Source: Kiritimatiella glycovorans (GTDB lineage: Bacteria; Verrucomicrobiota; Kiritimatiellia; Kiritimatiellales; Kiritimatiellaceae). From it: 32,000 nucleotides of DNA. The stretch is from NCBI RefSeq assembly GCF_001017655.1, contig NZ_CP010904.1:2460001-2492000 (forward strand). Direction: 5' to 3'. Of the stretch, positions 1 through 29,040 are shown one piece after another (within the stretch, counting starts at the first letter, position 1; each line of letters begins with the position of its first letter). The position numbers were made by a program, and so were the translations under genes. The notes beneath the pieces were generated by a model. The model saw only the letters and a list, made by a program, of their open reading frames with translations, made no database searches and was not told the DNA's origin.

Positions 1-913
1 ACAGGCCCAGGCGGCACTGCGCGAGATCCTTTCCCGGGGCGTCGAGCAGGGAGGTCAGCGCGACATACAGCGAGGCCGCGTAGCAGTTTCCGGTGACGCG
101 GGCGTACTCGCGCGTGCCTTCCAGCCACTCCTCGATCCGCTTCCCGTCCGCCTCCGCATGCAGCGCGCGCGCGAGCCGGACCTGTGCCTTTTCGGCCATG
201 CGGCTGAACGGCAGGTGGTAGCAGAACCGCTCGAAGTCCTCCAGCCCGCGGCCGCTCTGACCGGCGTAGTCCCGCCAGCAGTGCAGCATCGTGTCGATAT
301 AGACGCGCGTGGAGTACTTGCCGTCGACCAGCGCCTCGCGGCGGTAATTCGGCCGCCAGAAATCCATCACGTCCTCGGCATGATATCCCGCTTCGGGGTC
401 CAGGGCGAGAACCGCGGGGTCGGCCGCGACCGTAAAGGCGACGGCCCCGCACCCCTGGGTGGCTTCGCCGGGGTTTTCCAGCTCGTAGCGCGCGACATCG
501 GAAGCGATCACGAGTGCCTTGCGGCCGGGGCTCCCCCGCACGTGGGCTGCGGCGAGCTGGAGCGCCGCGGTCGCGCTGTAGCAGGCCTGTTTCACTTCCA
601 GGACGCGGCAGCGGGAGGGAAGATCCAGCAGGCCGTGGATGAACAGGCCGCCCGCCTTCGACTGGTCCACACCGCTCTCCGTGGCGAACAGGAGCAGGTC
701 GATGTCGTCCAGTTTCCCGTCGCGCCGCAGCGGGTGGGCCGCGCTGGCACCGAGCGTCACGGCGTCCTCATCCGGCGGCGCCACGCTCATGCGTTCCTGC
801 CCGAGGCCCTGAAGGTACTTTTTCGGGTCGACCGAACGCGCCTCCGCCAGTTTCTCGAGATCGAAGGCGTACTGCGCGGTGTAGAAACTGATGCTGTCGA
901 TGCCGATATTCAT
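1..913 (-). CDS. mvaS: Hydroxymethylglutaryl-CoA synthase (mevalonate pathway), 5' part only; the C-terminus lies beyond the window start
   Basis: Manual reverse translation from the ATG at 913..911 gives MNIGIDSISFYTAQYAFDLEKLAEARSVDPKKYLQGLGQERMSVAPPDEDAVTLGASAA...LLLFATESGVDQSKAGGLFIHGLL...EVKQACYSATAALQLAA...EATQGCGAVAF. This matches the bacterial MvaS N-terminus and the active-site Cys context (KQACYS). It is absent from the ORF track because it runs off the edge. The ATG overlaps the fni stop (ATGA at 910-913). Confidence 0.85.
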   Translation of the reverse strand, partial: MNIGIDSISFYTAQYAFDLEKLAEARSVDPKKYLQGLGQERMSVAPPDEDAVTLGASAAHPLRRDGKLDDIDLLLFATESGVDQSKAGGLFIHGLLDLPSRCRVLEVKQACYSATAALQLAAAHVRGSPGRKALVIASDVARYELENPGEATQGCGAVAFTVAADPAVLALDPEAGYHAEDVMDFWRPNYRREALVDGKYSTRVYIDTMLHCWRDYAGQSGRGLEDFERFCYHLPFSRMAEKAQVRLARALHAEADGKRIEEWLEGTREYARVTGNCYAASLYVALTSLLDAPGKDLAQCRLGL

Positions 914-1983
914 GCCGGATGTATGCCTCCGCGGGGACCGGCTTCATATTCACCGTCTCCGACAATCCACTGTTCCTGTCCTATCAAATATTCCGGGCGG
1001 CGGCAGCCGAGCAGGAAGAGGGCCAGACGGAACTCCTCGCGGTAGCGTCGGATGACCGCGCAGACCGCGTCCTCCGACTCCATCGCGGGCGCCAGCAGCG
1101 GGCGCGCCGCGCTGCCCAGCGAAGCGCCGAGAATCATCGCCCGGGCGATATCGACACCGGACCGGATGCCGCCGGAACCGATCAGCGTCGCGCCTTCCGA
1201 GCGAAGCGGAGAGAGGCGGCGCAGCGCCTGCGGCGCGGGTACGCCCCAGTCGGCGAAGGCCGCGGCCCGCGCGCGGCGCTCGGCATCGTCGCCGCGGCGA
1301 CTCTCCACATAGCTCCAGGAGGTGCCCCCGGCCCCGGCCGCATCGAAGTAGCGGACGCCTGCGGGGATGAGCGCACGCAGGTCGTCGGGGTGCAGACCGG
1401 CCCCCACCTCCTTGACCAGTACGGGCCGGTCGAGCGCCTCGGCGACCGCCCCGATCCGGGAGGCCAGTCCGCCGAAGGTGGGGGTGCCTTCGCGCTGCAC
1501 TGCTTCCTGAAGCGGATTGAGGTGCAGGTAGAGGCCGTCGGCCGCGAGCACGTCCACGGCTGCGCGGCATTCCTCGATCCCCATCCCCTGCCTGAGCTGC
1601 ACGGCGCCGAGGTTGGCGATCAGGGGCACCTCCGGGGCCAGCGGCCGCAGATCGAATGCCGCGCGCGCCTGCGGGTCCGAGAACATGACGCGCTGGGAGC
1701 CGACGGCCATGGCGACCCGTTCCCTGCGCGCCGCTGCGGCGAGGTTCCGGTTGATGCGGCGGAGCTGCCCGTCCGCTCCGCCGGTCATGGAAGCCATCAT
1801 GAACGGGAACGAGAGGCGGTGTCCCAGGAACTCGCAGGACGGATCCACCTCGTCGAGGTCCAGTTCCGGCAGGGCGCGATGATCGAGGCGCAGGGCGGCG
1901 AACGCACCGGCACTGCGGTCCGCCGCGGCCTCTTCCGCCGCGATACGCACATGATCGGCTTTACGCTGACTCATCGGCTCCAT
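910..1983 (-). CDS. fni: Type 2 isopentenyl-diphosphate delta-isomerase (FMN-dependent IDI-2)
   Basis: ORF 910..2085. From MEPMSQRKADHVRIA onward it resembles IDI-2: FMMASMTGG, AMAVGSQR, LVKEVGAGL, GAGGTSW, GSGGIRSGVDIARAMILGAS. I chose the start at 1983 because GGGAAGGGAG lies about 11 nt upstream and it avoids overlapping the upstream gene. 1974 and 2085 are alternative starts. Confidence 0.85.
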   Translation of the reverse strand: MEPMSQRKADHVRIAAEEAAADRSAGAFAALRLDHRALPELDLDEVDPSCEFLGHRLSFPFMMASMTGGADGQLRRINRNLAAAARRERVAMAVGSQRVMFSDPQARAAFDLRPLAPEVPLIANLGAVQLRQGMGIEECRAAVDVLAADGLYLHLNPLQEAVQREGTPTFGGLASRIGAVAEALDRPVLVKEVGAGLHPDDLRALIPAGVRYFDAAGAGGTSWSYVESRRGDDAERRARAAAFADWGVPAPQALRRLSPLRSEGATLIGSGGIRSGVDIARAMILGASLGSAARPLLAPAMESEDAVCAVIRRYREEFRLALFLLGCRRPEYLIGQEQWIVGDGEYEAGPRGGIHPA

Positions 1984-2059: not shown

Positions 2060-2641
2060 TCACGGGCCTTCGCTGCGGGATTCACGGTCGAGATCGAGGG
2101 CGTATTCCACCTCTTCCGCGGTCAGAGGACTGGTGACGCCCTCAAACGACTCGAACAGTTCCACCGGTCGGGTCGCCGACGGCTCTGCGGTTCCGGAAGG
2201 GCGCGCGGCCGGCTCCGGCGGGGGGGTGCGGGTCATCGCCAGCCAGCCTGCGGCGGCCATGACGGCGAGGACCACGATGAGGACCGCCAGCAGGTTGAGG
2301 GTCCGCTCCGAGCGCCGCAGCCGGGCGGCCATGGCCTCCTCGCTGCGCCTGCGCTCGTCGAGCTGGCCGCGGATATGTTCGAGACATTCGAGCGCGGCCG
2401 GGATCCGGTCGAGGTTCTCCGCCACGCGGTCCTGGAACTCGCGCTGGCGCCGCAGGTGGGACTGCACCGACTCCACCAGCTCGGCCATCCGGCGGTCCGT
2501 CTCTCCGGAGGCCTCCCCCCCGCCCGCGGCGGGAAGTCCGCCGCGTTTCCGGGCGGAGTCCGGTTTGACCGACGTCCACCCGCGGCTGGTCCTGTGTCCG
2601 GCACCCGTGAGTTTCCGCCACCAGCGGGTCCAACGATTCAT
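2060..2641 (-). CDS. Hypothetical membrane-anchored protein: basic N-terminus, coiled-coil-like segment, one TM helix (LLAVLIVVLAVMAAAGWLAM), acidic C-terminal tail
   Basis: 193-aa ORF with a strong SD (GGGAGGTG 5 nt before the ATG at 2641). It fills the gap between the kinase gene and fni on the same strand. I recognise no family. Confidence 0.55.
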   Translation of the reverse strand: MNRWTRWWRKLTGAGHRTSRGWTSVKPDSARKRGGLPAAGGGEASGETDRRMAELVESVQSHLRRQREFQDRVAENLDRIPAALECLEHIRGQLDERRRSEEAMAARLRRSERTLNLLAVLIVVLAVMAAAGWLAMTRTPPPEPAARPSGTAEPSATRPVELFESFEGVTSPLTAEEVEYALDLDRESRSEGP

Positions 2642-2673
2642 GCGACACCTCCCGCGGCGATTGTACGGCCGCC

Positions 2674-4722
2674 TCAGCCGGTCTCCCGTGCGAGGGCGTC
2701 TTCCGGGGCGGTCTTCGGGTTCCCGTCTGATCCGGGGACGTCCCGCTCGACCGGAAGCGTGACCGACACCCGCGTTCCCTCCTGCCCGGAATCCACCTCG
2801 ATCTTACCGTTATGGTCGACGACGATTCTTTTCGCGATGGGCAGGCCGAGTCCCATACCGCGGGCCTTGGTCGTGCAGAAGGGGGAGAAGAGTTTGGCGC
2901 GGAGTTCCTCGGGAATGCCGGCGCCGTTGTCCTGCACCGTAACCAGGACATACTCGCCCGACTCGCCGGCGGACATCCGGCGTGCCGTCACGCCGATGCG
3001 CGCGTCCCGGCCCGACTCCACCGCCTCGACGGCATTGACGACCAGGTGGCGCAGACATTCGCTCATCGCGGAGGCGTCGCCGGTGAGCACGGGCAGATGG
3101 TCGTCCACATAGAGGTCCAGGCTCAGGCCTTCCGCGTTACGGTCCTGCATGGCGCGCCGCACGGCCGTCTGCACGACGGGCCCCGGGGCGAAGGGCTCGT
3201 ACTTCGGATTCGGGGGGCTGGCGAAATGGTTGATCTGATCGATGATCTGGTTGAGCCGGTCGACCTCCCGTTCGACGTTGAGGCTGAACTGATCGCGGAA
3301 TTCGGGGTCGTCGTACCGCTCCGGGAGAAGCTGGGCGAAGGTTTTGATCGCGACCAGCGGATTACGGATCTCGTGCGACATGCTGGCGGCGAGTTCGTTC
3401 CAGAAGGCGACGCGCTCGAGCTGCTCCTCTTTCTCCTCGAGCCGGCGCTCTTCGGTGAGGTCCTTGATCAGCGCCACGGCGCCGACGCAACGGCCGTCGT
3501 CGAGCAGCCGCCGGGTCTCCGCCGAGAAGAGGCGCTGCGTGGCCGGATCGCTCCACTCGACCGGGTGGTGGATCTCCTCGCCGTCGAGCGCGCGGCGGAG
3601 GATATCGGAGAGCCGGCTGCCGAAGATTTCGACCGGCATCCCGCACACGCTCCCGGCCTCGACGCGCAGCGCGGTCTGGGCCGCCCCGTTGCACCAGCGG
3701 ACTTCGCCGTCCTCGCCGATGGCGATCAGCCCGGCGGGGATCGACTCCAGCAGGGTTTCGCCCAGCGCCTCGCGCATGCGGGTGTCCTCGTGCTGGAGCG
3801 CGTTATCGACCGTCGCGCCGATATGGTCCGTACAGGTGGACAGGTATTCCAGGTCCTCGGCGCTGAACGGCCGCCCGGTGATCCGCGCGCCGAGGAAGAG
3901 CCACCCTTTGACTCTCCTCCGGCCCGAGAGCGGCATGATCAGCTCCGCGCCCATTTCGTGGAGGGCCTCGGCGACCATTTCGCGATCCATCGGGTCTTCG
4001 ATCGTCTCGAGCGAAGAGCGCAGGACGGCCCTCCCGTTCCAGTCCAGCCACTGCACAAACCGGTCGCGGTCGGAGAAGTGGAGGCTTCGCAGATGATCGG
4101 AACACCGGTGGCCGCCGCGCAGGCAGTAGGTACCTCCGTCGCGCAGGGCGCAGAAGATGCCGGCGCGCGTGACCTTAAGGGCGGACGCCAGCCCGTCCAT
4201 CAGACTGTCGTAGAGAGCCGCAGGGTTCTCGAAATCGCCCATCGCCCGCGAGAGGTGGCGCAGGATATCCGAGGAGGGCGCGGTCTCCTCCGGGCCGGGC
4301 CCGGCGGCCGGGGTCTCGCGGCGGCGGATTTCTTCGCGCAATACGCGATTTTCGCGCTGCAGCTCCAGTCGGCGGTGCGCATCCTCCACGATCCGCCGGA
4401 ATTCGTAGGGCTCGAACTCGAGCGGCGAAACGGCGAAGACCTCGAGTTCGCGCGCCTCGCGCACGGGCGCCGAGCGGGCCTCGCCGAGCGTGATGACCGG
4501 CGCATCGGGATGCCGTTCGCGGATTTCGCGAAGCACATCGAGCGCCTCGGGGGCGCGGAGGTCGAGCACCACGACGCGGTGTGGGGTCCGGTAGAGGGCG
4601 CGGCTCAGTTCGGCGGCGCTGCCCGCGGCGCGGACTTCCGCCAGCTCGTGGAGGCTTCCGGTCACCCGCACGCGGACCTCGTCCTGCGCGCAGTAGAGAA
4701 AACAGGAGGGGCGCTGTTTCAT
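2674..4722 (-). CDS. Cytoplasmic sensor histidine kinase: N-terminal receiver-like domain, GAF-like region, PAS-like region, HisKA, HATPase_c
   Basis: 682 aa. H-box SMSHEIRNPLVAIKTFAQLL. N/G boxes NAVEA...DNGAGIPEEL...FSPFCTTKARGMGLGLPIAKRIV. The N-terminus (VVVLDLRAPEALDVLREIRERHPDAPVITLG) has a receiver-like fold signature. No TM segments are evident. The ATG overlaps the upstream kinase stop (ATGA 4719-4722). Confidence 0.85.
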   Translation of the reverse strand: MKQRPSCFLYCAQDEVRVRVTGSLHELAEVRAAGSAAELSRALYRTPHRVVVLDLRAPEALDVLREIRERHPDAPVITLGEARSAPVREARELEVFAVSPLEFEPYEFRRIVEDAHRRLELQRENRVLREEIRRRETPAAGPGPEETAPSSDILRHLSRAMGDFENPAALYDSLMDGLASALKVTRAGIFCALRDGGTYCLRGGHRCSDHLRSLHFSDRDRFVQWLDWNGRAVLRSSLETIEDPMDREMVAEALHEMGAELIMPLSGRRRVKGWLFLGARITGRPFSAEDLEYLSTCTDHIGATVDNALQHEDTRMREALGETLLESIPAGLIAIGEDGEVRWCNGAAQTALRVEAGSVCGMPVEIFGSRLSDILRRALDGEEIHHPVEWSDPATQRLFSAETRRLLDDGRCVGAVALIKDLTEERRLEEKEEQLERVAFWNELAASMSHEIRNPLVAIKTFAQLLPERYDDPEFRDQFSLNVEREVDRLNQIIDQINHFASPPNPKYEPFAPGPVVQTAVRRAMQDRNAEGLSLDLYVDDHLPVLTGDASAMSECLRHLVVNAVEAVESGRDARIGVTARRMSAGESGEYVLVTVQDNGAGIPEELRAKLFSPFCTTKARGMGLGLPIAKRIVVDHNGKIEVDSGQEGTRVSVTLPVERDVPGSDGNPKTAPEDALARETG

Positions 4723-7199
4723 GAATCCGGATCCCCCTCGTTTACAGTTTCGAACGAGATAAAGAAGCTGGTTCCCTCGCCCTGCGCGCTGCGGACCTCG
4801 ACCTCGCCTTGATGGTCCTTGATGATCCCGTGGGCCACCGGAAGACCGAGTCCGGTCCCCTCATCTTTTCCGGTGAAGAAGGGGTCAAAGATACGCGGGA
4901 CATCCTCCCGGGGTATACCGCACCCCGTGTCCGCGATTTCCACGCGGACCGCTGGCCGTCCGTCCCGCCGCTCGTTGCGCGTCTCCATGCTCAATACCCC
5001 ACCTTTTTCCATAGCCTCGATCGCATTCAAGCAGAAATTGAGGAAGGCTTGAATGAGAAGCGAGGCGTCGCCGCGGATCAGATCGTTGGAAGCCTCCCAC
5101 CGGGTGCGCGATTCGATGCCTTTCTGCTTCATGTTTTCCGCGACGAGGCTCTGCACGCGCTGCAGGATCTCCTGCAGGTGCACCGGGACCAGATGGGGGG
5201 GCTGGGGGCGGGCGAAGCGCAGCAGCTGATTGACCGTATTGTCGATCCGGCCCACCTCGTGCCCTACGAGTTCCGAGAAATTGCGGCGGAAGTCCGGGTC
5301 CTCGTAGCGTTCCGGCAGGAGCTGGGTGAAGGTCTTGATGGTCACCAGCGGGTTCTTGATTTCGTGGGCCATGCCCGCGGCGAGCGTACCTGCGCTGGCC
5401 AGGCGGTCCGACCGGCGCACCTGCTGCTGGAGGCGGTGCACGGCGCTCACATCGTGAAAGACCAGCAGCCCGCCCAGCCGGGCTTCGCCGCGCCCGGTAA
5501 TCACGGCGGCCCCGAGCCGCAGGTGGTATTCTTCGTCCGCCGTCGAGCGTATGAGGGTATCGCAGTCGCGGCGCCCCTTCCCGGTGGCCAGCGTCTCCTC
5601 CATAAACTCGTTGAGGGGTTCGGGCAGTTCGGAGCAGGGCGAGCCGAGCAGGGCGCTCGAGGGGACCCCGGTGATCCGTTCCGCCTCGCGGTTGAAGATA
5701 CTCACGCGGCCCCGCGAATCGGTGGCCGCCACGCCGGTGACCAGGTGTTCCACCAGGAAGTCGTTGTAGATCTTGCTGTTCTGGACCTCCGTGTAGAGCT
5801 GGGCGTTTTCCACCGCCACCGCGAACTGGTTGCAGAGGCTCTGCAGGGCATTCTGTTCGGGGGAGCCGTAGATGCGTTCCGATCGTCGCGGCCCCAGCAG
5901 CAGCATCCCGCGCAGGTACCCCTTGGAGTAGATGCCGATGCCGATCGCCATCCCGAGGGCCTGGAGCTCCGCGCAGGCCGCGGCGCGCTGTTCCGTGGTG
6001 CGCAGCCGTCCCTCGATCTCCGGAACGAGCGGTCTGCGCTGCTGGGAGAGCACGCGCACGACCGGCGAATCCTCGGCCAGCTCGAGCGGGTTCTCCTCCT
6101 TCAGTTCGGGCGGGGGGCGGTAGAACCCGTCCGGCTGGCGGAAGAGGAACATGCCGCGCTCCGCATCCATGGTCCTCAGCACCAGCCCTGACGCCTGGTT
6201 CAGCAGCGAGGGCAGTGTGGACACCGTCCGCAGCAGGTCCGAGGCCCGCCGCATCAGTTCCGCCGTGTCGATATTTCCGGCGTCGTCGAAGAGCTTACCG
6301 GTCATCCGGTGAACACGGTCCTTGAGGGGCGGAGCGAAAATGGCCGTGACCACCGCCGCCACGCAACAGGCCACGATATCCGGCATCGCGAACCAGCCGG
6401 TAAAGAGGAGGTCGGCGACCCACCACGAGAAGAGAAAGATCACCGCGAGATAGGCGGAGAGCACGATATAGCCCAAGGCCCGCTGCAGGAGGTGTGACAC
6501 GTCCATGATCCGGTGGGTGGCGATCCCGTAGGCGATGATTACATTGAGCAGAATTACGCCGTAGGGTGCCAGCGGGGCGGTTTTCGAACTCCCACTGATC
6601 GCGGGTATGATAATTCCCAGCGTGATCCCGGTACTGATCCCCACGATGGCGCCCAGGCATACGAACTTGAGTTCCACCTGCCGGATCGACTTCGTGCTGC
6701 GGATATCCCGGATGAAGTGCCGGATCAGCACCGCCACCAGTGCGATATACATCAGGGAAAACAGGTGGAACAGCGGCCCGTAACGCGGTTCGGCAAACAC
6801 CACGTTCAATTCGGTGTCGCGTGTCAGCACTACCTCGCGGATGAAAAGGTCGGTTCCGCAGAGCAGGGCCGCCAGGAGGTTGACGAGGATGAAAATTCCG
6901 GAGCGGCGCACGCTATGCCAGAAGCCTTCCGATTCGTCGAGCAGCGAGAGTCGCAGCAGGAAAAAGGCCGTAGGCACGAGAATGCAGACCCGGGAGGCCT
7001 GACGGATCCAGAATTCGGCATCCTCCGCCTCCTGCGCATTCAGCACCATCCACTGACAAAACAGCCAGAGCGCGATGATCACCGAAAAAAGCAGGTAGCG
7101 CCGATTCGCCCTGCGCCCGCTGTTGGTGAAAAACACCAGCAACCCGAGGGCAAAAACGGTGATCGTCGCACTTAGAATGGAGAAGTGAAAAAAGTTCAT
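4719..7199 (-). CDS. Membrane sensor histidine kinase: ~290-aa polytopic (about 7 TM) N-terminal domain, GAF-like, PAS-like, HisKA, HATPase_c
   Basis: 826 aa. Multiple hydrophobic helices lie in the first ~290 residues. H-box GMAHEIKNPLVTIKTFTQLL. ATP-lid DTGCGIPREDVPRIFDPFFTGKDEGTGLGLPVAHGII. The ATG overlaps the ketosynthase stop (ATGA 7196-7199). Confidence 0.85.
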   Translation of the reverse strand: MNFFHFSILSATITVFALGLLVFFTNSGRRANRRYLLFSVIIALWLFCQWMVLNAQEAEDAEFWIRQASRVCILVPTAFFLLRLSLLDESEGFWHSVRRSGIFILVNLLAALLCGTDLFIREVVLTRDTELNVVFAEPRYGPLFHLFSLMYIALVAVLIRHFIRDIRSTKSIRQVELKFVCLGAIVGISTGITLGIIIPAISGSSKTAPLAPYGVILLNVIIAYGIATHRIMDVSHLLQRALGYIVLSAYLAVIFLFSWWVADLLFTGWFAMPDIVACCVAAVVTAIFAPPLKDRVHRMTGKLFDDAGNIDTAELMRRASDLLRTVSTLPSLLNQASGLVLRTMDAERGMFLFRQPDGFYRPPPELKEENPLELAEDSPVVRVLSQQRRPLVPEIEGRLRTTEQRAAACAELQALGMAIGIGIYSKGYLRGMLLLGPRRSERIYGSPEQNALQSLCNQFAVAVENAQLYTEVQNSKIYNDFLVEHLVTGVAATDSRGRVSIFNREAERITGVPSSALLGSPCSELPEPLNEFMEETLATGKGRRDCDTLIRSTADEEYHLRLGAAVITGRGEARLGGLLVFHDVSAVHRLQQQVRRSDRLASAGTLAAGMAHEIKNPLVTIKTFTQLLPERYEDPDFRRNFSELVGHEVGRIDNTVNQLLRFARPQPPHLVPVHLQEILQRVQSLVAENMKQKGIESRTRWEASNDLIRGDASLLIQAFLNFCLNAIEAMEKGGVLSMETRNERRDGRPAVRVEIADTGCGIPREDVPRIFDPFFTGKDEGTGLGLPVAHGIIKDHQGEVEVRSAQGEGTSFFISFETVNEGDPDS

Positions 7200-8488
7200 G
7201 GTCGGGTCACGCGGCTTACCACCAGGGAGCTGTTAATACCGCCCATGCCGTGCACGTTGAGCATGGCACAATCCGCGCGGTAGCGACGCGGTCGCAGGGG
7301 CACGTAATCCAGATCGCAGGCGGGATCGGGCTCCCTGTAATTCGCCGTCGGGGGAACAAGGTCGTCCCGAAACACCCCCGCGCAGGCGGCGAGCTCCAGC
7401 GGGCCCGCGGCCGCGAGAGGGTTGCCCGTGACCCCTTTAATCGAACTCACCGGTATCCGGTAAGCCCATGGACCGTATACCGCCTTGATGGCCTCCGTTT
7501 CGCGCTGATCCAGCTCCGGGTCGCTGGGGCCGTGCGCGCAGATATAGTGCACGTCCCGTGGCGCGGTCCCGGCGGCGTCGAGGGCCTCGCGCATCGCGTC
7601 CTCGAACCCCGACCCCACGGCCTCCGCCGAGCGATCCAGCCGGCTTCCCCATCCCAGGAGTTCCAGGCGCGGCTCCGCGCCCCGCGCCATGGCGTGGACG
7701 AGCGACTCGACCACGAAAAACGCTCCTCCCTCGGCCATCACACCACCCTCCCGCCGCCGGTCGAACGGGCAGCTTCGCGTGGCCGCATTCACGACCCCCC
7801 CGGGCACCATGCGGGTGCGGCCGAAACACGCAACCGTCAACGGGTTGATCGGGGCGTCGACCCCCCCGGCCAGGACCAGGTCGCTTCGCCCCTCCCGGAC
7901 GACCGACGCCGCCTCGGCGAGCGCGTCCATCCCGGCTGCGCACGCCGTCGAAACCGTCATGGCGCGCGTGTTCAGCCCCATGTGCTCGGAGATGGCAGTA
8001 GCCACGGCATGCGGCTGACAAGCTCCGACGATATGCGGACTGACCTTGTTCGGGCCGCGGCGCGACATCTGTTCCTTACCCTGCTCAATCACCTCAATGG
8101 CACTGGTGCTTACGCCCACATAGATCGGAAGAAGCGAGCCGCTCTGGAGATCGGCCGATTCCCCGACCCGTGCGTCCTTGATCGCCATGCAGGACGCCGC
8201 AAGGGCAAACTGCGTGTGACGCCCCATGCGCTTCGGCTTAACAGGAAAAGGAATATGAATCAGGGGATCAAATCCGTCTACCTCGCCGGCAATCCCCACA
8301 AAATGTTCGGATGCATCAAACAATGAAATAGGCCCGATGCCGCTCCGTCCTTCGAGGAGGGCGGACCAGAAGTCCTCGACGCCGATACCGTTCGGCGCAA
8401 GAACCCCTATTCCCGTGATGACGACTCGTCGCGCGTCGACCAAGCCCTTCTCCCCTAAAGGCAGCGAAGCCTCCGGACCGTAAACCAC
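7196..8488 (-). CDS. Beta-ketoacyl synthase of the KAS I/II (FabB/FabF) fold, atypical (apparent Cys-His-Asn instead of Cys-His-His)
   Basis: 430 aa, GTG start at 8488. RRVVITGIGVLAPNGIGVEDFW, active-site Cys context VSTACAAG, first His YICAHGPSDP, C-terminal NVHGMGGINSSLV. The position aligned to the second catalytic His of FabF (KSMTGHLLGAAG) reads IKGVTGNPLAAAG. Confidence 0.8.
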   Translation of the reverse strand: MVYGPEASLPLGEKGLVDARRVVITGIGVLAPNGIGVEDFWSALLEGRSGIGPISLFDASEHFVGIAGEVDGFDPLIHIPFPVKPKRMGRHTQFALAASCMAIKDARVGESADLQSGSLLPIYVGVSTSAIEVIEQGKEQMSRRGPNKVSPHIVGACQPHAVATAISEHMGLNTRAMTVSTACAAGMDALAEAASVVREGRSDLVLAGGVDAPINPLTVACFGRTRMVPGGVVNAATRSCPFDRRREGGVMAEGGAFFVVESLVHAMARGAEPRLELLGWGSRLDRSAEAVGSGFEDAMREALDAAGTAPRDVHYICAHGPSDPELDQRETEAIKAVYGPWAYRIPVSSIKGVTGNPLAAAGPLELAACAGVFRDDLVPPTANYREPDPACDLDYVPLRPRRYRADCAMLNVHGMGGINSSLVVSRVTRP

Positions 8489-8600
8489 CGCCCCCTGGCG
8501 GAAACATTTTACGGCTTGTCCGTATCATCCCGCCTGTGCTATCAAAACCCCCGTCGGAACGGTCAAGCCCGAAGCCTAAGCAACCCGGGAGAGGTGTACA

Positions 8601-9881
8601 ATGTTTTATTTGCACGCGTCCAGATGGTCGACGACCCCCCGAATGGTCCGTGTTCTGCTGTGTGTCGCGGCGCTTATCGCGGCGGGGTCCGCTTTCGGGG
8701 ACGGCTACCGCAATCCTCCTCCGACGGCGGAGGGGATCGGCAAGGGGGGCGCGAACCGCGCTTTTGTCGACGACGCCTCGGCGATCTTCTACAACCCGGC
8801 GAACCTGATGTTCCTGGAGCGCCCCGAAGTGGTGGGCGGCGTCACGATAGCCCGCGCTCACGGCGACTTCGACCCCGACAACCTCGCGGGATCCCGCGAA
8901 TCCGAGGACCCGTGGCAGGCGATGCCCAACGTGTTCGCCGCCTGGCCGATGCCGGAGAGCGGCCTCGTCTTCGGCCTCGGCATCTCCACGCCCTACGGGC
9001 AGTCGGTGGAGTGGGACCGGGATGCGTTTTACGCTCCCATGACCCCGTCACTCTACCGCGCGGAGATGAAAATGGTCGACTTCGCGCCCACGGCCGCGTG
9101 GAAATTGAATGACAACCTCTTCTTCGGTGCGGGCGTCAACATCATGTACTCCACCTTCGACCTCGACCAGAACGTGCCGTGGAGCGATCTGCCCTCTCCG
9201 CCGTTTACCGGTCCCGACAGCACCGGCGAAATTGAAAGCGACGGCATGGGACTGGGCGGGAATGCCGGCATGACCTGGCTGATCACGGAACGCCAGCGCA
9301 TGGCCTTTACGTACCGCTCCCGCTTCCAGATCGAATACGACGGCGACCTTCATGTCGGCAATTTCCAGCCCGGCGGGTACTTCGCGGCCGCCTCCAGCGA
9401 TTTTTCCACCGACATCCAGTTCCCCGATACTTTCGCGCTGGGCTATGGCGTCCGCGTGACCGACCGGATGAACCTGGAATGCAACGTGGAGTGGCTGAAC
9501 TGGAGCAGTAACGACGAGGCCGTGTTCGACCTCGGCAACAACGGTTCCCTGCCGGTCAACTACGACTGGGAAGATACGTTCACCTATGCACTCGGCGCCG
9601 ACTGGTCGCTCGACGACCACTGGACCGCCCGGTTCGGGTACGCCTACATAGAGAGTCCCGTCCCGGACCACACCTACAGTCCTTTCTTCCTTGAGGAGGA
9701 TCGTCACGTCCTGAGCACCGGCATCGGGTACCGTGCGGGCGGGCACCGGATCGATCTGGCCTACGCCTACAGCCTCTACGACGAACGCGACGTGAACACC
9801 AACACGGAAAACCCCCTCTACGAAGGTGAGTACGAGTACGACTCCGATCTGCTCGGCCTGACCTACGCCTACACCTTCTGA
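8601..9881 (+). CDS. Outer-membrane beta-barrel of the FadL/OmpP1/TodX long-chain fatty acid / hydrophobic compound transporter family
   Basis: 426 aa. Signal peptide MVRVLLCVAALIAAGSAFG. Family-typical N-terminal segment GKGGANRAFVDDASAIFYNPANL. Alternating aromatic beta-strand pattern with terminal YAYTF (C-terminal Phe). SD GGGAGAGG lies 7 nt before the ATG at 8601; 8643 is an alternative start. Confidence 0.75.
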   Translation: MFYLHASRWSTTPRMVRVLLCVAALIAAGSAFGDGYRNPPPTAEGIGKGGANRAFVDDASAIFYNPANLMFLERPEVVGGVTIARAHGDFDPDNLAGSRESEDPWQAMPNVFAAWPMPESGLVFGLGISTPYGQSVEWDRDAFYAPMTPSLYRAEMKMVDFAPTAAWKLNDNLFFGAGVNIMYSTFDLDQNVPWSDLPSPPFTGPDSTGEIESDGMGLGGNAGMTWLITERQRMAFTYRSRFQIEYDGDLHVGNFQPGGYFAAASSDFSTDIQFPDTFALGYGVRVTDRMNLECNVEWLNWSSNDEAVFDLGNNGSLPVNYDWEDTFTYALGADWSLDDHWTARFGYAYIESPVPDHTYSPFFLEEDRHVLSTGIGYRAGGHRIDLAYAYSLYDERDVNTNTENPLYEGEYEYDSDLLGLTYAYTF

Positions 9882-9902
9882 TCAGCGGGAGCACGAGGAT
9901 TC

Positions 9903-11099
9903 ATGGCCACCGGGGAACCACAGGGCAAAGTGCTCGTGATCGACGACGAGCAGGGACCGCGGGAAAGCCTCAAGATGGTTCTCAAGGGGCCTTACGAGGT
10001 CGTCACCGCCGATCACGTGGATGAGGGCCTGCGCAAATTCGAAGAGGAAAACCCCGACCTGGTGATCCTCGACATCCGCATGCCCGGCCGCAACGGCATC
10101 GAGGCGCTCAAAGAGATCCGCGAACGGGACTCGGAAGTGGCCGTCATCATGCTCACCGGCTACGGGGCGCTCGAGACCGCGCAGCAGGCGATCCGGCTCG
10201 GCGCCAACGACTACCTGGAAAAACCCTTCGACATCAACAACATCAGAAAAATTGTCGACACCAATGTGGCGCATACGCGGCTCAACCGCCGCCGGAACCG
10301 TGCCGAACACGAGCTGGAGTCGCTGACCGAGCGACTGCAGTCCGAGATTGGCGTGAAGGACAACATGGCCTCGCTCGGCGTGGCCTCCGCCGAACTGGTG
10401 CACGATATCCGCAACCCGCTCACGGTCGTCCTCGGCTACGTCCAGCTCATGATGCACCAGCTCGGCGAACTGAGCACCGGCGATTCAGAACGCGACTCGC
10501 AGGATCTCTCCGAGTATCTCGGTGCGATCGAAAAAAATGCGCGCTACTGCGCCAAGCTGGCCGAGGACTGGCATATGCTGGGGCGCGGCGAGCACGATTC
10601 GGTCGAGCCGGTGGCGATCCCCGGGCTGCTGCGCGATGTGGTCGAGAACGCGCAGGCGGTCGATCCCGAGGCCGCGATCCGGCTCGAGATCGAGTCCCCC
10701 GAAGACGACCTCACCTGCCGTGCCGCCCATATCCAGCTTCAGCGGGCCCTGCAGAACATCGTCAACAACAGCGTCCAGTCGCTCCAGGGGCGCGACGTCA
10801 GGAACGTCGACATCCACTGCAGCCGCAACGGCGACGGACAGATCCGGATCGTGATCGCCGACACCGGCTGCGGAATCGCCCGCGAAACGCTCGAGTGGAT
10901 TTTCGAGCCGTTCAAGACCACCAAGAAGGGCGTACAGAAGGGAACCGGACTCGGCATGTTCATCACCAAAAAGGTCATCGACCGCCACGGGGGGCGGATC
11001 GAATTCGAGAGCGAAGAGGGCCGCGGAACCACGGTTACCGTGCTGCTTCCCGAGCGGCCGCCGGATCACATGGACGAGGGAAAAAACGCAGACGCGTAA
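9903..11099 (+). CDS. Hybrid response-regulator/histidine kinase (N-terminal receiver, C-terminal HisKA-like + HATPase_c)
   Basis: 398 aa. Receiver: KVLVIDDEQG...DLVILDIRMPGRNGIEALKEIR...VIMLTGYG...DYLEKPF. H-box ELVHDIRNPLTVVLGYVQL. ATP-binding part NNSVQS...DTGCGIARETLEWIFEPFKTTK...GTGLGMFITKKVI. Confidence 0.85.
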   Translation: MATGEPQGKVLVIDDEQGPRESLKMVLKGPYEVVTADHVDEGLRKFEEENPDLVILDIRMPGRNGIEALKEIRERDSEVAVIMLTGYGALETAQQAIRLGANDYLEKPFDINNIRKIVDTNVAHTRLNRRRNRAEHELESLTERLQSEIGVKDNMASLGVASAELVHDIRNPLTVVLGYVQLMMHQLGELSTGDSERDSQDLSEYLGAIEKNARYCAKLAEDWHMLGRGEHDSVEPVAIPGLLRDVVENAQAVDPEAAIRLEIESPEDDLTCRAAHIQLQRALQNIVNNSVQSLQGRDVRNVDIHCSRNGDGQIRIVIADTGCGIARETLEWIFEPFKTTKKGVQKGTGLGMFITKKVIDRHGGRIEFESEEGRGTTVTVLLPERPPDHMDEGKNADA

Positions 11100-11110
11100 A
11101 GGGGGCATAC

Positions 11111-11494
11111 ATGGGGGACGAAGCGCGGAACATACTCATTATTGACGACGATCCCGACATCCGGCGGCTGCTGGAACAGTTTCTGGCGAGGGAAGGTTAT
11201 AACATCCTGACCGCCTCCACCGGCGCGGAGGCCGAACAGATCTATCTGGAAAACCCTCCCGACCTGGTCATCACCGATATCATCATGCCGGATCGCGAGG
11301 GGATCGAGACGATCCGCGAGATGCGCCGCATGTACCCGGAGATGACGATCGTCGCCATCTCGGGCGGGGGACGCATCGATTCGCAGGACTACCTGGTGCT
11401 CGCCCGAAAACTGGGCGCCGACCGGACCTTCGGAAAACCGTTCGACCTCGCTGAAATGCTCAACTATATCAGAGAAGCGCTCGGCGATGCGTGA
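11111..11494 (+). CDS. Single-domain CheY-like response regulator (no output domain)
   Basis: 127 aa starting at the internal ATG 11111, with SD AAGGGGG just upstream. NILIIDDDPDIRR...DLVITDIIMPDREGIETIREMR...IVAISGGG...FGKPF. Confidence 0.85.
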   Translation: MGDEARNILIIDDDPDIRRLLEQFLAREGYNILTASTGAEAEQIYLENPPDLVITDIIMPDREGIETIREMRRMYPEMTIVAISGGGRIDSQDYLVLARKLGADRTFGKPFDLAEMLNYIREALGDA

Positions 11495-15173: not shown

Positions 15174-17633
15174 TCACCCCACCGGAACAAACTCGATACC
15201 CTCTTTCCCGGCGCGGGCTTCCACCGTCTCGGCGTCCTCGAGCCTGCCGCGCAGGATGGCGTCGGCCAGCCGGTCCTCGACCTCGCGTTCCACGGTGCGT
15301 CGCATCTGGCGCGCACCATAGGTCGGGTCGAACCCTTTTTCGATGAGGTATTCCTTCGCCGAATCCGCCAGCCGCAGATCGACCTTGCGTCCCGCCAGGC
15401 GGGTGCGCACCCGCTCAACCTCGTTATCGAGAATCCGCTCGATGTGCGTGCGGTTGAGCTTGCGGAAGACCACGATATCGTCGAGACGATTGATCAGTTC
15501 CGGTTTGAAGACGTTGCGCGCCTCGGAGAGCATCGTGTCCTTGAGCTTCGCGTAATCCATCTCGCCCGAGATCTGGCCGAATCCCATGCCCCCGCCCTTT
15601 TTGACCAGCTCGCCGCCGAGGTTGGACGTCATGATGATCACCGTATTCCGGAAGTCGACGCTGCGCCCGAGGCTGTCGGTCAGACGGCCTTCCTCGAGGA
15701 TCTGAAGCAGCATATGCATCACGTCGGGGTGGGCCTTTTCGACCTCGTCGAAGAGGACCACCGAATACGGCCGGCGGCGGACTCTTTCCGTGAGCTGTCC
15801 GCCCTCCTCGTGGCCCACGTAGCCCGGGGGCGAACCCACCAGCCGCGAGACGTTGAACTTTTCCATGTACTCCGACATGTCGAGCTGAATCAGCGCGTCC
15901 TCGTCGTCGAACACGAACCGGGCCAGCTCCTTCGCCAGCATCGTCTTGCCCACACCCGTGGGGCCGAGAAAGATGAACGATCCGATCGGCCGCGTGGGAT
16001 CCTTGAGGTCCGCGCGCGAACGACGCAGTGAGCGGGCAATGGCGGTGATGGCCTCGTCCTGCCCGATGACGACGCGGGAGAGGGTGTCCTCCATCTCGAG
16101 GAGCTTCTTCATCTCCGCCTCGCCCATTTTGGCGACGGGCACCCCGGTCCACTTGGAGACCACCACCTTGATCTCCTCGTCGTCGATCGAGATCGTATTC
16201 TCCTCGCGCTCCCGGCGCCATTCGTTGACCACCTCGTCCAGCTTCTCCTTGGCGCCGCGCTCCCGGTCGCGCCAGGAGGCCGCCTCTTCGAAATTCTGGT
16301 CCTGGATCGCCTGATCCTTGTTCCGCCGGGCCTCTTCGATCTCGTCCTCCAGCTTCCTGATTTCCGGGGGCCGCGTCATGGTGGTGATCCGGCCGCGCGC
16401 GCCGGCCTCGTCGATCAGATCGATCGCCTTGTCGGGCAGGAAGCGGTCCGGGAGGTAGCGGGCCGAGAGTTCCGCGGCCGCCTTGAGCGCCTCGTCCGAG
16501 AACCGGGCGTGGTGGTGCTCCTCGTACTTCGAGCGCAGCCCGCGCAGGATCTCCACCGTCTCCTCGATCGTCGGTTCTTTCACCGTGATCGACTGGAACC
16601 GGCGTTCGAGCGCGGCGTCCTTCTCGACGAACCGCCGGTACTCCTTGAGGGTCGTGGCCCCGATACACTGCAGCTCCCCGCGGGAGAGCGAGGGTTTAAT
16701 GATGTTGGCCGCGTCCATGGCGCCCTCGGCGCTGCCGGCGCCGACGATGGTATGCAGTTCGTCGAGGAACAGGATGATATTGCCCATGCGGCGGATTTCA
16801 TCCATCACCGCCTTGATCCGCTCCTCGAACTGACCTCGGTACTTCGTGCCCGCGACCATGAGCGCCAGGTCGAGCTTGACGACTTTGCGGTTCGTGAGCA
16901 GGTCGGGCACTTCGCCTTCGACAATATTCTGGGCGAGACCTTCCGCGATCGCCGTCTTGCCGACCCCCGCCTCGCCCAGCAGTACGGGGTTGTTCTTGGT
17001 CCGGCGGCAGAGGATCTGGATGACGCGCTCGATCTCCTCCTTGCGCCCGATCACGGGATCGAGTTCGCCCTTGCGGGCCTCTTCCGTCAGGTCGAGGCCG
17101 AAGGCGTTCAACGCGGGGGTCTTCGACTTGCCCTTCTTCTCCTTGCGCGCCGTGCCGAGTTCGGGACCCGGCGCCTCCTCCTCGTCGCCCGGCTCATAGT
17201 TCGGGTCGAGTTCCTTCATCACCGCCATGCGGCTCTCTTCGAGGTCGATGCCGAGGCTCTCGAGCACGCGCGCGGCCACGCCCTCGCCCTCGCGCAGCAG
17301 GCCGAGCAGGATATGCTCGGTGCCGACGTACGTATGCCCCAGCGACTGCGCCTCGCGTCCGGCGAGGGCCAGCACCTTCTTCGCCCGCGGCGTGAAGGGG
17401 ATGTTGCCGATCGTCTTCATCTCCGGACCCGTGCCGACGGCCTTTTCCACCTCCATGCGGAGGGTCTCCAGCTCGACGCCCATCGACTTCAGCACGCTGA
17501 CCGCCACGCCCTGGTCGAGGCCGATCAGTCCCAGCAGGATGTGTTCGGTGCCGACATAGCCGTGGTTGAACCGCTCGGCTTCCGCGCGGGCGGCCTGCAG
17601 TACCTTCTGGGCTCTGGGGGTAAAATTATTCAT
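15174..17633 (-). CDS. clpC: ATP-dependent Clp protease ATP-binding subunit ClpC (class III stress AAA+ unfoldase)
   Basis: The true start is [36 protein letters not shown] (ATG 17633). It has a duplicated Clp_N repeat, two AAA+ modules ([10 protein letters not shown]; [15 protein letters not shown]) and the UVR-like linker [12 protein letters not shown] typical of ClpC. The ATG overlaps the mcsB stop (ATGA 17630-17633). Confidence 0.9.
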
Positions 17634-18688
17634 GTCTGTTCCTCTCCGCGCAGCATACTCCGGATCAGCCCCGCGCGTACCCTGTCCCTTTCGCCGGAGG
17701 GCAATGTCTGCTTTTCGATCCGCTGCAGATGCGCCGGCTGCGTATGCACGAGAAGCCGGTCGATCTGCTCGCGGCGCGCGTAATCGATCATACCCAGATC
17801 GCAACCGAGCCGCAAGGCGGACAGCAGATCCAGCGCCTCCTTGGAGCCCAGGATGCGGGCGTGGGAAAGGATCCCGTAGGCCCGGCCGATATGATCCTCG
17901 AGCACCGTCTCGCGGGTCTCGAAAAGCCGTTTGCGGGCGTTTTCCTCGTGTTCGACCAGCTCCAGCGTAATCTGTTCAAGATGGTCGACGATGTCCTCTT
18001 CGCGCTTGCCGAGCGTGATCTGGTTGGAAATCTGGAACATGTGGCCGGCGGACTCCGTCCCTTCGCCCCACAGGCCGCGCACGGCCAGCCCGATGCGGGA
18101 GACCCCTTTGAGCACCGGGTTCATCTCCTCCATCAACACGAGGCCGGGCAGATGGAGCATGACACTGACGCGAATTCCGGTGCCGACGTTCGACGGGCAG
18201 GCCGTAAGGTACCCGAGCTTCGGCGAAAAGGCATAGGTGACTTCGCCCTCCACGCCGTCGTCGAGCTCATTGACCTCGCGCCACACTTCGTGAAGCGCGA
18301 TCCCCGGGCGGATCACCTGCATGCGCAGGTGGTCCTCCTCGTTGATCATGACCGAGGTCCTTTCATCGGGGCTGATCAGCACTCCGCTGCCCGCGGCGCG
18401 CGCCACCTGTTCCCGGCTGATGAGATGCCGCTCGTACAGCAGTTCGCGGTCGACGTCATCCAGCTCGCCCATCTCCCACGCCGCCGCGCCGGCGATCCAT
18501 TCATGGCTGAGAAAGAGTTCGCGCAGACCGCCCCATAGGCGGACGCGGTTCTTCTCCCCGGCCCAGTCCGGGAACCGTTCCCCCTTCAGGTTCCGCGCAA
18601 GGCGCGCCCGGCTGCTTATGACGGGGCCCTCGCGGAGGCCCGTCTCGAACCACCCCTCGCGGCGGCCGATCAGTTCCTCCGGATTCAT
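17630..18688 (-). CDS. mcsB: Protein arginine kinase McsB (ATP:guanido phosphotransferase family)
   Basis: The true start is MNPEELIGRREGWF (ATG 18688). VISSRARLARNL, MINEEDHLRMQV, phosphagen-kinase signature CPSNVGTGIRVSVMLHLPGL, and a C-terminal dimerisation/pArg region. The ATG overlaps the mcsA stop (ATGA 18685-18688). Confidence 0.9.
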   Translation of the reverse strand: MNPEELIGRREGWFETGLREGPVISSRARLARNLKGERFPDWAGEKNRVRLWGGLRELFLSHEWIAGAAAWEMGELDDVDRELLYERHLISREQVARAAGSGVLISPDERTSVMINEEDHLRMQVIRPGIALHEVWREVNELDDGVEGEVTYAFSPKLGYLTACPSNVGTGIRVSVMLHLPGLVLMEEMNPVLKGVSRIGLAVRGLWGEGTESAGHMFQISNQITLGKREEDIVDHLEQITLELVEHEENARKRLFETRETVLEDHIGRAYGILSHARILGSKEALDLLSALRLGCDLGMIDYARREQIDRLLVHTQPAHLQRIEKQTLPSGERDRVRAGLIRSMLRGEEQT

Positions 18689-19212
18689 TCGCTTTCGCTC
18701 CCCTCTTGCGAACCCAGCGCGCGCACTTCGTCGCGCAACTCGGCCGCCTTCTCGTATTCCTCGCGCGCCACCGCCCGTTCGATCTCCTTCTGCAGGCGGG
18801 CCAGCTTTGCGTTCCTGCGGGCCGCCGCCCCGGCGCGCGCCGGGATCTTGCCGGCGTGCTGATTGCTGTGATGCATGGCGTTGATCAGCGACATGATTTC
18901 GCCCATGAAGGTATCGTAACACCGCGGACAGCCGAGGCGGCCGATCCGCTTGAAGTCGGACCGCCGCATGCCGCAGTCCGGACAGGCCAGCTCCAGTTCC
19001 TCGCCTCCGCCCGGAGGGGACGCCTCTTCGCCGCCGGCCGATTCGCCCTGCCCCAGACCGAACAGGATGTCGGTGATCGAAATCGGGCTCTGCACGTCCC
19101 AGCCCTTCTTCTCCGCGCAGGACTCGCAGATGTGGATCTTCTTCACGACGCCGTTCACCACCTGGGTCAGGTGGATCGTCGCTTCCTTCTGATGACAGAA
19201 TTCACACTTCAT
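18685..19212 (-). CDS. mcsA: McsA-like activator of McsB (four CxxC zinc-finger motifs plus UVR domain)
   Basis: The true start is MKCEFCHQKEATIHL (ATG 19212). CxxC motifs: CEFC, CESC, CPDC, CPRC. C-terminal UVR-type helix LQKEIERAVAREEYEKAAELRDEVRAL. The ATG overlaps the ilvE stop (ATGA 19209-19212). Confidence 0.85.
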   Translation of the reverse strand: MKCEFCHQKEATIHLTQVVNGVVKKIHICESCAEKKGWDVQSPISITDILFGLGQGESAGGEEASPPGGGEELELACPDCGMRRSDFKRIGRLGCPRCYDTFMGEIMSLINAMHHSNQHAGKIPARAGAAARRNAKLARLQKEIERAVAREEYEKAAELRDEVRALGSQEGSESE

Positions 19213-28988: not shown

Positions 28989-28990
28989 CG

Positions 28991-29040
28991 GGGCGGGCGA
29001 AGAGCCCGCGCTTCGTCCTTTCGCCCCCGCCCGGTATTTC
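28991..29040 (+). terminator. Possible intrinsic terminator after pgsA (imperfect GC-rich hairpin followed by TATTT)
   Basis: GGGCGGGCGAA (28991-29001) pairs with TTCGCCC/CC-bulge/GCCC (29020-29032), followed by GGTATTTCG. The stem has a 2-nt bulge and the T-tract is short. Confidence 0.3.

Follow-up and report, generated by a model that had tools for sequence, protein, structure and literature searches.

The window analysed here is a 32,000-nucleotide (nt) stretch of the Kiritimatiella glycovorans genome (contig NZ_CP010904.1, positions 2,460,001 to 2,492,000 of the forward strand), in which several histidine kinase genes and lipid-related genes are grouped around one divergent intergenic region. 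This group is the K. glycovorans copy of a signalling module that is conserved in Verrucomicrobiota, Kiritimatiellia and Lentisphaerae. The core of the module consists of two divergent units, one encoding a ketosynthase (KS) followed by two histidine kinases (HK1 and HK2), and the other encoding a receiver–histidine kinase hybrid (REC-HK), with or without a FadL-type channel gene before it. The copy in the window is a derived variant, since the activator gene and the sigma-54 motif that accompany the module in relatives are both absent at this locus. Bacteria of the Verrucomicrobiota, Kiritimatiellia and Lentisphaerae occur in large numbers in soil, the gut and marine sediment, and to our knowledge their signalling is almost uncharacterised. 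All functional statements made below are based on sequence. The core features of the window are as follows.

7196–8443, minus strand: FabF-like ketosynthase (KS), first gene of the KS-HK1-HK2 operon (Pfam ketoacyl-synt, 3.3e-41).
4719–7199, minus strand: HK1, membrane histidine kinase with HisKA_7TM, GAF, PAS, HisKA and HATPase_c domains (Pfam).
2674–4722, minus strand: HK2, soluble histidine kinase with a pseudo-receiver followed by GAF, PAS_4, HisKA and HATPase_c domains (Pfam).
8444–8600, no strand: divergent intergenic region, with these bounds if KS starts at 8443.
8601–9881, plus strand: FadL/TodX-family outer-membrane channel (Pfam Toluene_X, 2e-63).
9903–11099, plus strand: REC-HK, a receiver with HisKA and HATPase_c domains (Pfam).

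The genes listed in a preliminary description of this DNA were all found, at or very near the positions given there. That description placed the divergent intergenic region at 8489–8600; the region is present, and it spans 8444–8600 if the 415-residue database entry for KS (P0001, start at 8443) is followed, the open reading frame (ORF) itself being open to 8488. ATGA overlaps occur at three junctions (KS/HK1, HK1/HK2 and fni/mvaS, the last being two isoprenoid genes further along the minus strand), in agreement with the translational coupling claimed earlier, and the remaining gene gaps at the locus measure 11–75 nt, with Shine-Dalgarno sequences present.

An alignment scan with KS, using one genome per species, returned 302 relatives, and the best 80 loci were examined. 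These come from Verrucomicrobiota (including Chthoniobacterales and 'Spartobacteria'), Kiritimatiellia and Lentisphaerae, and nearly all are from metagenome-assembled genomes. ORFs in these loci were called from stop to stop and labelled by phmmer with pieces of the window proteins and of the activator of one relative (locus L001), and each count uses only those loci with enough flank for the feature concerned. HK1 lies directly after KS in all 78 loci that could be scored, HK2 directly after HK1 in 66 of 67, and REC-HK is divergent from KS in 62 of 63. FadL stands between REC-HK and KS in 18/63 loci and is thus an accessory member of the module. Locus L001, whose KS is 57% identical to that of the window, has FadL and REC-HK divergent from KS, together with an 828-residue kinase, a 670-residue kinase and a REC-Sigma54_activat-HTH_8 protein. 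The same core was met in two more loci reached through HK1 homologues.

Synteny of the core in 80 other genomes puts the arrangement far beyond chance. Two-component genes are numerous, and fni, mvaS, an SMC gene and a small receiver gene at this locus are truly unrelated neighbours, as would be expected if two-component and lipid genes had merely come to lie side by side in a compact genome; however, the four core genes keep their order and orientation in nearly all 80 loci, across three classes and with conserved cis elements between them, which makes such a juxtaposition extremely improbable. The earlier proposal of a multi-kinase unit tied to a lipid-type enzyme, and in part of the family to FadL, is therefore borne out, the core being syntenic in essentially every locus examined. 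The neighbourhood survey which that description recommended nevertheless divides its gene set: KS, HK1, HK2 and REC-HK co-occur, whereas fni, mvaS and the extra receiver do not, and fni, mvaS, orf193 (a small gene next to HK2), the SMC gene and a receiver directly after REC-HK were each found in 0/80 related loci. A literature search of incomplete coverage turned up no account of a three-kinase unit linked to a ketosynthase in these phyla, in line with the preliminary description, which knew of no system of this composition, and the module is apparently undescribed so far.

In some relatives, the module is linked to a conventional DNA-binding regulator. An NtrC-type activator (REC-AAA+-HTH_8) follows HK2 in 12/55 loci, and among the FadL-type loci with enough flank the figure is 12 of 14. 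FadL and the activator occur together in 12 loci and are both missing from 37, and FadL occurs alone in 2, both of which belong to Kiritimatiellales, as does the window. The preliminary description had regarded the linkage of these kinases elsewhere to such a regulator as speaking against its model, and at the level of the family this linkage exists.

In 72 of 76 loci, a sigma-54 −24/−12 motif is directed towards the (FadL-)REC-HK operon; shuffled sequences predict it in 0.34/21 and 0.66/55 loci. The motif reads TGGCA[CT]-N5-[TC]TGCT in FadL-type loci and GGCACG-N4-TAGCT in the others, and lies at a tight spacing, 29–46 nt before the first aligned residue of REC-HK or 53–169 nt before the first aligned residue of FadL. 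It is kept in the two Kiritimatiellales loci without an adjacent activator, which indicates that the activator can be unlinked. The intergenic regions of FadL-type loci also carry paired TGT-N10-ACA-like palindromes, as judged by eye.

None of this is seen in the window. The region 8444–8600 shows no sigma-54 promoter, no TGT-N10-ACA palindromes and no TGTGAATAA boxes (a 9-mer of relatives' intergenic regions, described below), and its best score by position weight matrix or weighted consensus is at most 13/21, compared with 16.5–21 at the sites of relatives. No module gene is preceded by a site of at least 18.5/21; a single site of this strength occurs in the 32 kb, at 1025 on the minus strand, and it lies inside fni. 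A sigma-54 activator was not found anywhere in the 32 kb, either by tblastn with the activator of a relative or by Pfam searches of the remaining ORFs, and profile searches of 2060–11494 found no DNA-binding or enzymatic output domain. A sigma-54-dependent operon was accordingly rejected for the window, there being no −24/−12 motif at the locus and no activator gene in the 32 kb. A scan for sigma-70 consensus promoters and terminators was uninformative, with 0 promoters, in 8444–8600 too, and terminators at or below the shuffle expectation. The earlier characterisation of the unit as output-less thus holds for this locus, where no output domain is present, but not for the family, in which the activator (12/55) and the sigma-54 motif (72/76) are found.

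Some further elements of the intergenic regions were noted. At 8495–8510 on the plus strand of the window, approximately 90 nt upstream of the FadL start, the sequence TGGCGGAAACATTTTA (TGGCGG-AAACA-TTTT) scores 12.5/21 by hand; it has a −24-like TGGC and carries TT instead of the essential GC of the −12 element, so that it is a chance match or, at best, possibly a relic of the sigma-54 promoter of relatives. In the REC-HK/KS intergenic regions of REC-HK-type loci (L013–L082), a 9-mer, TGTGAATAA (equivalent to TTATTCACA), matches the consensus of DnaA boxes, TTATNCACA. Of 55 loci, 49 contain this 9-mer, with 57 copies against 0.75 expected. Several of the printed regions hold two TGTGAATAA copies 9 nt apart, usually with AAATATAATGAC further downstream, and TTATCAACA variants occur in FadL-type loci. 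In addition, a conserved element, TGGCA[CT]GCAAGGTGCA, faces KS approximately 100 nt from the REC-HK sigma-54 motif (e.g., L024, L027, L040, L067 and L082). This element, like the GGCACGCAAGGTGCA element that faces KS in some Chthoniobacterales loci, may be a further sigma-54 promoter or a palindrome (GCAC-N5-GTGC) for binding of the activator.

All three kinases of the window (HK1, HK2 and REC-HK) keep the phospho-acceptor His of the H box together with the N, G1 and G2 boxes, and are assigned to the HisKA class. Their H boxes read HEIKNPL, HEIRNPL and HDIRNPL (AHEIKNPL in HK1 and VHDIRNPL in REC-HK), the N boxes NAIEAM, NAVEAV and NNSVQSL, the G1 boxes DTGCGI, DNGAGI and DTGCGI, and the G2 boxes GTGLGL, GMGLGL and GTGLGM.

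HK1 belongs to the HisKA_7TM family (PF16927) with 41.1 bits against a threshold of 28.6, over residues 9–234. Its AlphaFold2 model (predicted local distance difference test score 80.9) shows approximately 9 helices in residues 3–305 and a single beta-hairpin at 120–140. Since the sensor is almost entirely intramembrane in this model, HK1 would suit a lipophilic ligand or a property of the bilayer. A Foldseek search of the model against the PDB was uninformative on the membrane sensor, because the matches cover only the kinase, PAS and GAF parts.

The N-terminal 165 residues of HK2 have no Pfam match and align to receiver domains. They keep the equivalent of Asp57, while the acidic pair is changed from DD to C-A, Thr87 is lost and Lys109 is replaced by S, and orthologues show the same pattern. 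A phosphorylatable receiver was rejected on the grounds of the acidic pair, Thr/Ser87 and Lys109, and from these residues the HK2 N-terminus is assigned as a pseudo-receiver; it is 33% identical to the receiver of the activator in relatives. The earlier count of three kinases and three receiver-type domains therefore needs one correction: the kinases are intact and two receivers are canonical, but the 'REC-like' domain of HK2 is this pseudo-receiver. A metagenome scan with HK2 found no close relatives, only generic kinases.

HK1 and HK2 are 59% identical in the dimerisation and histidine phosphotransfer (DHp) helix region and 20% in GAF-PAS, and 15 of the 17 residues after the phospho-acceptor His are the same in both. 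With near-identical DHp helices and divergent GAF-PAS parts, the two proteins probably respond to different inputs while sharing one target receiver, or else pair as heterodimers. The best NCBIfam matches of both are AtoS and ZraS, and the cytoplasmic domain of ZraS is 32% identical in a structural match; kinases of this AtoS/ZraS/NtrB type have sigma-54 activators as partners. Neither qualifies as AtoS/AtoC (NF008468/NF008469), with 297.8 and 236.6 bits, both below 646, and no activator in the window. PrsK (TIGR02916) was likewise rejected for HK1, which reaches 77.1 bits of the 300 required, over the kinase core only.

On the other strand, REC-HK has neither a sensor nor an output domain, and its receiver is canonical (DD, D, T, K; Response_reg 106 bits). 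Its best match among solved structures is Leptospira LvrB (8vc9, 84.9 bits, residues 45–383). Although the alignment to the LvrB family (NF047466) runs from end to end, the score of 110.5 bits is below 500 and REC-HK is not an orthologue. FadL matches Toluene_X (PF03349) with 214.8 bits over model positions 3–421 of 421, which places it in that family, and its N-terminus resembles a signal peptide; as an equivalog of Escherichia coli FadL it was rejected (96 bits, below 585).

KS has the thiolase fold, with 142 bits to ketoacyl-synt and 76.1 bits to Ketoacyl-synt_C against a gathering threshold of 20.8. In fold, length and the conserved Cys, first His and Lys, it resembles the elongating ketosynthases FabF/KAS II. 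In contrast to these enzymes, it has Asn for the second His, an altered HGTGT motif and a replaced gating Phe, and at 337.2 bits it scores below the TIGR03150 cut-off of 493.75. FabF was thus rejected for KS, on the score as well as on the missing Cys-His-His triad and the missing gating Phe. The alignment to Bacillus subtilis FabF (257 bits), from which the retention of the catalytic Cys, first His and Lys and the change of the second catalytic His to Asn were read, places SIKGVTGNPLAAAG of KS at KSMTGHLLGAAG of FabF.

These features are shared by the family. Across 28 members, Cys168, Lys336 and Asn341 never vary (28/28) and His304 is kept in 25, HGTGT becomes HGP(S/G)(D/H), and the gating Phe400 is replaced by Leu, Met or Ile (Met in the window). 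Catalytic residues so strictly conserved suggest that the enzyme works, with changed chemistry or kinetics. Elsewhere, a Cys-His-Asn triad typically marks enzymes of the FabH/CHS type, to which the signal synthases PqsD, PpyS and DarB belong. Among the loci seen, KS is never in a fab operon and always stands ahead of the kinases.

The explanation that we favour combines a conserved module, sigma-54 wiring in the family, a derived variant in the window and a ligand model, and as a whole we give it about an even chance of being right. In FadL-type relatives, HK1 and HK2 would phosphorylate the receiver of the NtrC-type activator, and the activator would turn on the sigma-54 promoter of FadL and REC-HK. 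REC-HK, with a DHp unlike that of HK1 and HK2, would serve as a second-tier kinase made on induction, or as a sink for phosphate. The path in the window would probably run from HK1 and HK2 to the receiver of REC-HK, and from there to a small stand-alone receiver encoded just downstream. The first of these steps is suggested by the REC-HK receiver, which among the receivers of the window is the most similar to the activator receiver of relatives (35.5%). The activator may also be encoded elsewhere in the K. glycovorans genome.

KS is placed on the input side because it is translationally coupled to the sensors and lies outside the operon of the conserved sigma-54 motif. It would make or process a hydrophobic acyl-derived ligand, the membrane-embedded HK1 would detect this KS-dependent ligand, and FadL would let it cross the outer membrane. 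This mechanism is inferred only. FadL-family channels let hydrophobic molecules through. Extracellular acyl-homoserine lactone signals of the long-chain type are reportedly modulated by a FadL homologue (PMC9938287). A more specific form of the proposal is that the Cys-His-Asn KS makes a new class of acyl-derived hydrophobic signal (e.g., a beta-keto acid or an alkyl ketone), which is sensed by the multi-helix kinase and, in FadL-type lineages, taken up through a sigma-54-induced FadL. This is held tentatively and considered somewhat improbable. If true, it would mean cell–cell or lipid signalling specific to Verrucomicrobiota, Kiritimatiellia and Lentisphaerae, with a K. glycovorans version rewired without sigma-54.

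Several points weigh against the favoured explanation. Most lineages have no adjacent response regulator with an output domain for HK1 and HK2, and approximately 15 loci of Chthoniobacterales type carry a sigma-54-like motif facing KS, which weakens the argument that KS is not a regulated target. The module contains no acyl carrier protein (ACP), thioesterase or tailoring gene. The promoter calls are consensus motif matches only, and the counts, taken from the best 80 of 302 KS relatives, may not hold for the rest.

Two other roles can be considered for KS. The first is membrane-lipid homeostasis of the DesK type, in which HK1 would sense the bilayer or exogenous fatty acid, KS would be the effector acting on the acyl-chain pool, and FadL would supply fatty acids. 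The large intramembrane domain of HK1, with almost no extracytoplasmic part, fits this reading, as do the retained Cys, His, Lys and Asn of a KS that is closest to the elongating FabF and the position of FadL as a sigma-54 target in FadL-type loci. The motifs facing KS in some Chthoniobacterales loci and an LpxD gene downstream in locus L067 point in the same direction. However, the conserved sigma-54 motif mostly precedes REC-HK or FadL rather than KS, the co-translation of KS with the sensors is a placement typical of input-side genes, and the altered second His and gating Phe argue against ordinary elongation. We therefore consider this role unlikely.

The second is that KS is a trigger enzyme or co-sensor, whose acyl-enzyme or substrate-bound state would report the flux of acyl-ACP or malonyl-ACP by direct contact with HK1 and HK2, with no diffusible product involved. 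KS and HK1 are adjacent in 78/78 loci and their genes overlap in the window, the catalytic and gating substitutions could slow turnover, and no ACP, thioesterase or export gene is found in the module. Against this, no KS–kinase fusion occurs among the homologues listed, and the strict conservation of catalytic residues fits a working enzyme. We consider a co-sensor distinctly unlikely.

The favoured explanation can be compared with several known systems. The parts of the module fall into known superfamilies, and none of them passes the test for FabF, AtoSC, LvrB, PrsK or chemotaxis CheY. With the NtrB/NtrC-type systems (AtoS/AtoC and ZraS/ZraR), the module shares the PAS-HisKA-HATPase cores of HK1 and HK2 and, in relatives, the in-operon REC-AAA+-HTH_8 activator and the −24/−12 motif at the target. 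It differs in its two sensors of one DHp type, in the third kinase, REC-HK, and in the ketosynthase within the unit; moreover, the window copy lacks the activator and the sigma-54 motif, and the scores are far below the equivalog cut-offs. PrsK/PrsR, the regulator pair of PEP-CTERM/exosortase systems, combines a multi-helix membrane domain, GAF and a kinase with an NtrC-family sigma-54 activator and is common in Verrucomicrobia-type genomes, whereas the module loci have no PEP-CTERM or exosortase genes.

REC-HK can be compared with LvrB of the Leptospira LvrA/LvrB pair, which has the same receiver-HisKA-HATPase_c architecture with no sensor and no DNA-binding domain; the two differ in phylum and partners, and in relatives REC-HK is the target of a sigma-54 motif. 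Myxococcus AsgA and Ralstonia PhcR are also REC-HK hybrids, and by analogy with these proteins and LvrB, REC-HK probably acts in the middle of a branched pathway. In multikinase networks such as GacS/RetS/LadS, several kinases converge on one pathway or modulate it. The near-identical DHp of HK1 and HK2 would likewise allow a shared partner or heterodimers, whereas the module kinases are encoded with an enzyme, and the whole unit is inherited across classes.

In Vibrio CqsA/CqsS, Legionella LqsA/LqsS/LqsT/LqsR and Ralstonia PhcBSRQ, which are quorum-sensing units for lipid signals, a synthase is combined with a polytopic membrane kinase; in the last of these, PhcR has the REC-HK form and PhcQ is a receiver. 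The module resembles these in having a synthase-like gene beside a multi-helix kinase, extra kinases, output-less receivers and hydrophobic chemistry. CqsA and LqsA are aminotransferase-like and PhcB is a methyltransferase, whereas KS has the FabF fold. The resemblance is an analogy of gene adjacency and domains only.

Outside the conserved core, the locus also contains the following genes.

11111–11494, plus strand: stand-alone CheY-like receiver, 127 residues (Response_reg, 1.9e-25).
2060–2641, minus strand: orf193, predicted single-pass membrane protein of 193 residues, between HK2 and fni.
910–1983, minus strand: fni, type 2 isopentenyl-diphosphate isomerase (TIGR02151).
1–913, minus strand: mvaS, 3-hydroxy-3-methylglutaryl-coenzyme A synthase, N-terminal 304 codons, cut by the window edge (TIGR01835, from the translation).

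The stand-alone receiver is canonical (DD, D, S, K; Response_reg 89.6 bits) and starts 11 nt past REC-HK, with its ATG at 11111 behind an AAGGGGG Shine-Dalgarno sequence; the SMC gene lies downstream of it. Its homologues are 50–60% identical, occur in many phyla and in varied contexts, and sit alone or after a different hybrid kinase, with no link to the module. It is an addition from a generic family, seen only in this genome. Chemotaxis CheY was rejected (CheY_Halo, 63 bits, below 200; no che genes in the window). K. glycovorans is described as non-motile (PMC5148204), which excludes a flagellar CheY role.

orf193 has no Pfam or NCBIfam match. It encodes one hydrophobic segment (residues 111–140), has GGGAGG as Shine-Dalgarno sequence before its ATG, and shows a GC content at third codon positions (GC3) of 0.845. 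Among 1.84 billion representatives, a single true homologue turned up (91% identity). The metagenome contig that carries it is 1.2 kb long, is approximately 90% identical at the DNA level and has the end of HK2, orf193 and fni in the same order. A comparison of the two copies counts 30 synonymous and 20 non-synonymous codon differences, a pattern suggestive of purifying selection, and orf193 is a real but orphan, genus-specific gene. Because the order is kept in this contig, the HK2-orf193-fni adjacency is stable within Kiritimatiella; neither the 80 related loci nor any other locus read shows it.

fni and mvaS are identified by profile, fni scoring 342.9 bits to TIGR02151 (cut-off 281.3) and mvaS 373 bits to TIGR01835 (cut-off 360.35); the likely start of fni is the ATG at 1983, after GGGAAGGGAG. 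Together with orf193, they occupy the slot held in FadL-type relatives by the sigma-54 activator. The scan found no terminator-like site between HK2, orf193, fni and mvaS, and read-through transcription from HK2 into fni-mvaS is possible in K. glycovorans. According to the genome study of this organism, its isoprenoids are made via mevalonate, in contrast to the methylerythritol pathway of all other Verrucomicrobia, Lentisphaerae and Planctomycetes that have been sequenced (PMC5148204). The same study found that the mevalonate enzymes affiliate with proteobacterial proteins and left room for lateral transfer (PMC5148204). The GC and GC3 values of orf193, fni and mvaS show no anomaly, so that composition neither supports nor refutes a lateral origin. 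fni and mvaS are neighbours seen only in Kiritimatiella, outside the conserved module.

These neighbours bear on the model that the preliminary description had put forward, namely a branched, output-less phosphorelay that ends in a protein–protein contact of the CheY-like receiver and ties the sensing of hydrophobic compounds or of the envelope to the synthesis of isoprenoids or lipids, the signalling genes being co-transcribed with fni-mvaS. At this locus no output domain is encoded, a canonical receiver begins 11 nt after REC-HK, no terminator-like site separates HK2 from mvaS, the HK2-orf193-fni order recurs in the ~90%-identical contig, and a small receiver ORF lies 1–2.3 kb downstream of HK2 in 22/41 activator-less loci. 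However, fni and mvaS are present in none of the 80 loci and belong to a pathway of possibly lateral origin (PMC5148204), the receiver after REC-HK is unique to this genome and from a generic family, and relatives have a sigma-54 activator and promoter motif. In L067, moreover, the small receiver is parted from HK2 by a class II fructose-bisphosphate (FBP) aldolase and LpxD, and the organism is non-motile. We regard this model as very unlikely. Of its two specific claims, the CheY-like protein as final output finds no support, a receiver directly after REC-HK being present in none of the 80 loci, and the isoprenoid link does not extend beyond Kiritimatiella, the adjacency having been seen again only in that one contig; the link may be a local insertion only.

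Being a four-gene unit inherited in three classes, with fixed order and conserved cis elements, the module stands out as a strong candidate for a regulatory circuit that defines a lineage. The constant presence of a ketosynthase with an atypical active site points to a new lipid-derived cue or to a new coupling between fatty-acid metabolism and two-component signalling. K. glycovorans, which is cultured, would offer a natural rewiring with no activator gene or sigma-54 motif at the locus. The active-site Cys of KS, the sigma-54 promoter before REC-HK or FadL, and the in-operon activator provide experimental handles.

The position after HK2 is variable among relatives. The nearest HK1 relative (45% identity) has an MscS gene there. 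In L034 (Pontiellaceae bacterium B1224), HK2 is followed directly by a small Fis-family protein with a stand-alone HTH_8 (15569–15937), which takes the slot of the full NtrC-type activator of other FadL-type loci and may be a remnant of the activator or a minimal DNA-binding partner. A class II FBP aldolase follows HK2 in the Chthoniobacterales loci checked (L019, 15855–16874, and L067), and in L067 the stretch 15448–18386 also holds LpxD and then a stand-alone receiver. On the REC-HK side, a weak AMP-binding gene of the adenylate-forming, acyl-activating type converges on REC-HK in L083 (GCA_030012885.1, 5999–7291), with no conservation in other loci.

Elsewhere in the window, a row of minus-strand genes (15174–19473) encodes an McsA-like protein with a UVR motif (18685–19473), an McsB-like ATP:guanido phosphotransferase (17630–18922) and an AAA+ chaperone of the ClpC/ClpB type that also carries a UVR motif (15174–17804). 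This arrangement is best known from Firmicutes, and here it stands in a bacterium of the Planctomycetes–Verrucomicrobia–Chlamydiae group. A tRNA-Val gene (anticodon TAC) lies at 24337–24410 on the minus strand, in the one part of the window that is richer in AT and poor in ORFs. Long ORFs with no Pfam match occur at 22846–23664, 28353–29996, 29079–29627 and 30312–31619; several of these, lying opposite genes for a Mur ligase, a CDP-alcohol phosphatidyltransferase and TilS, are probably not genes.

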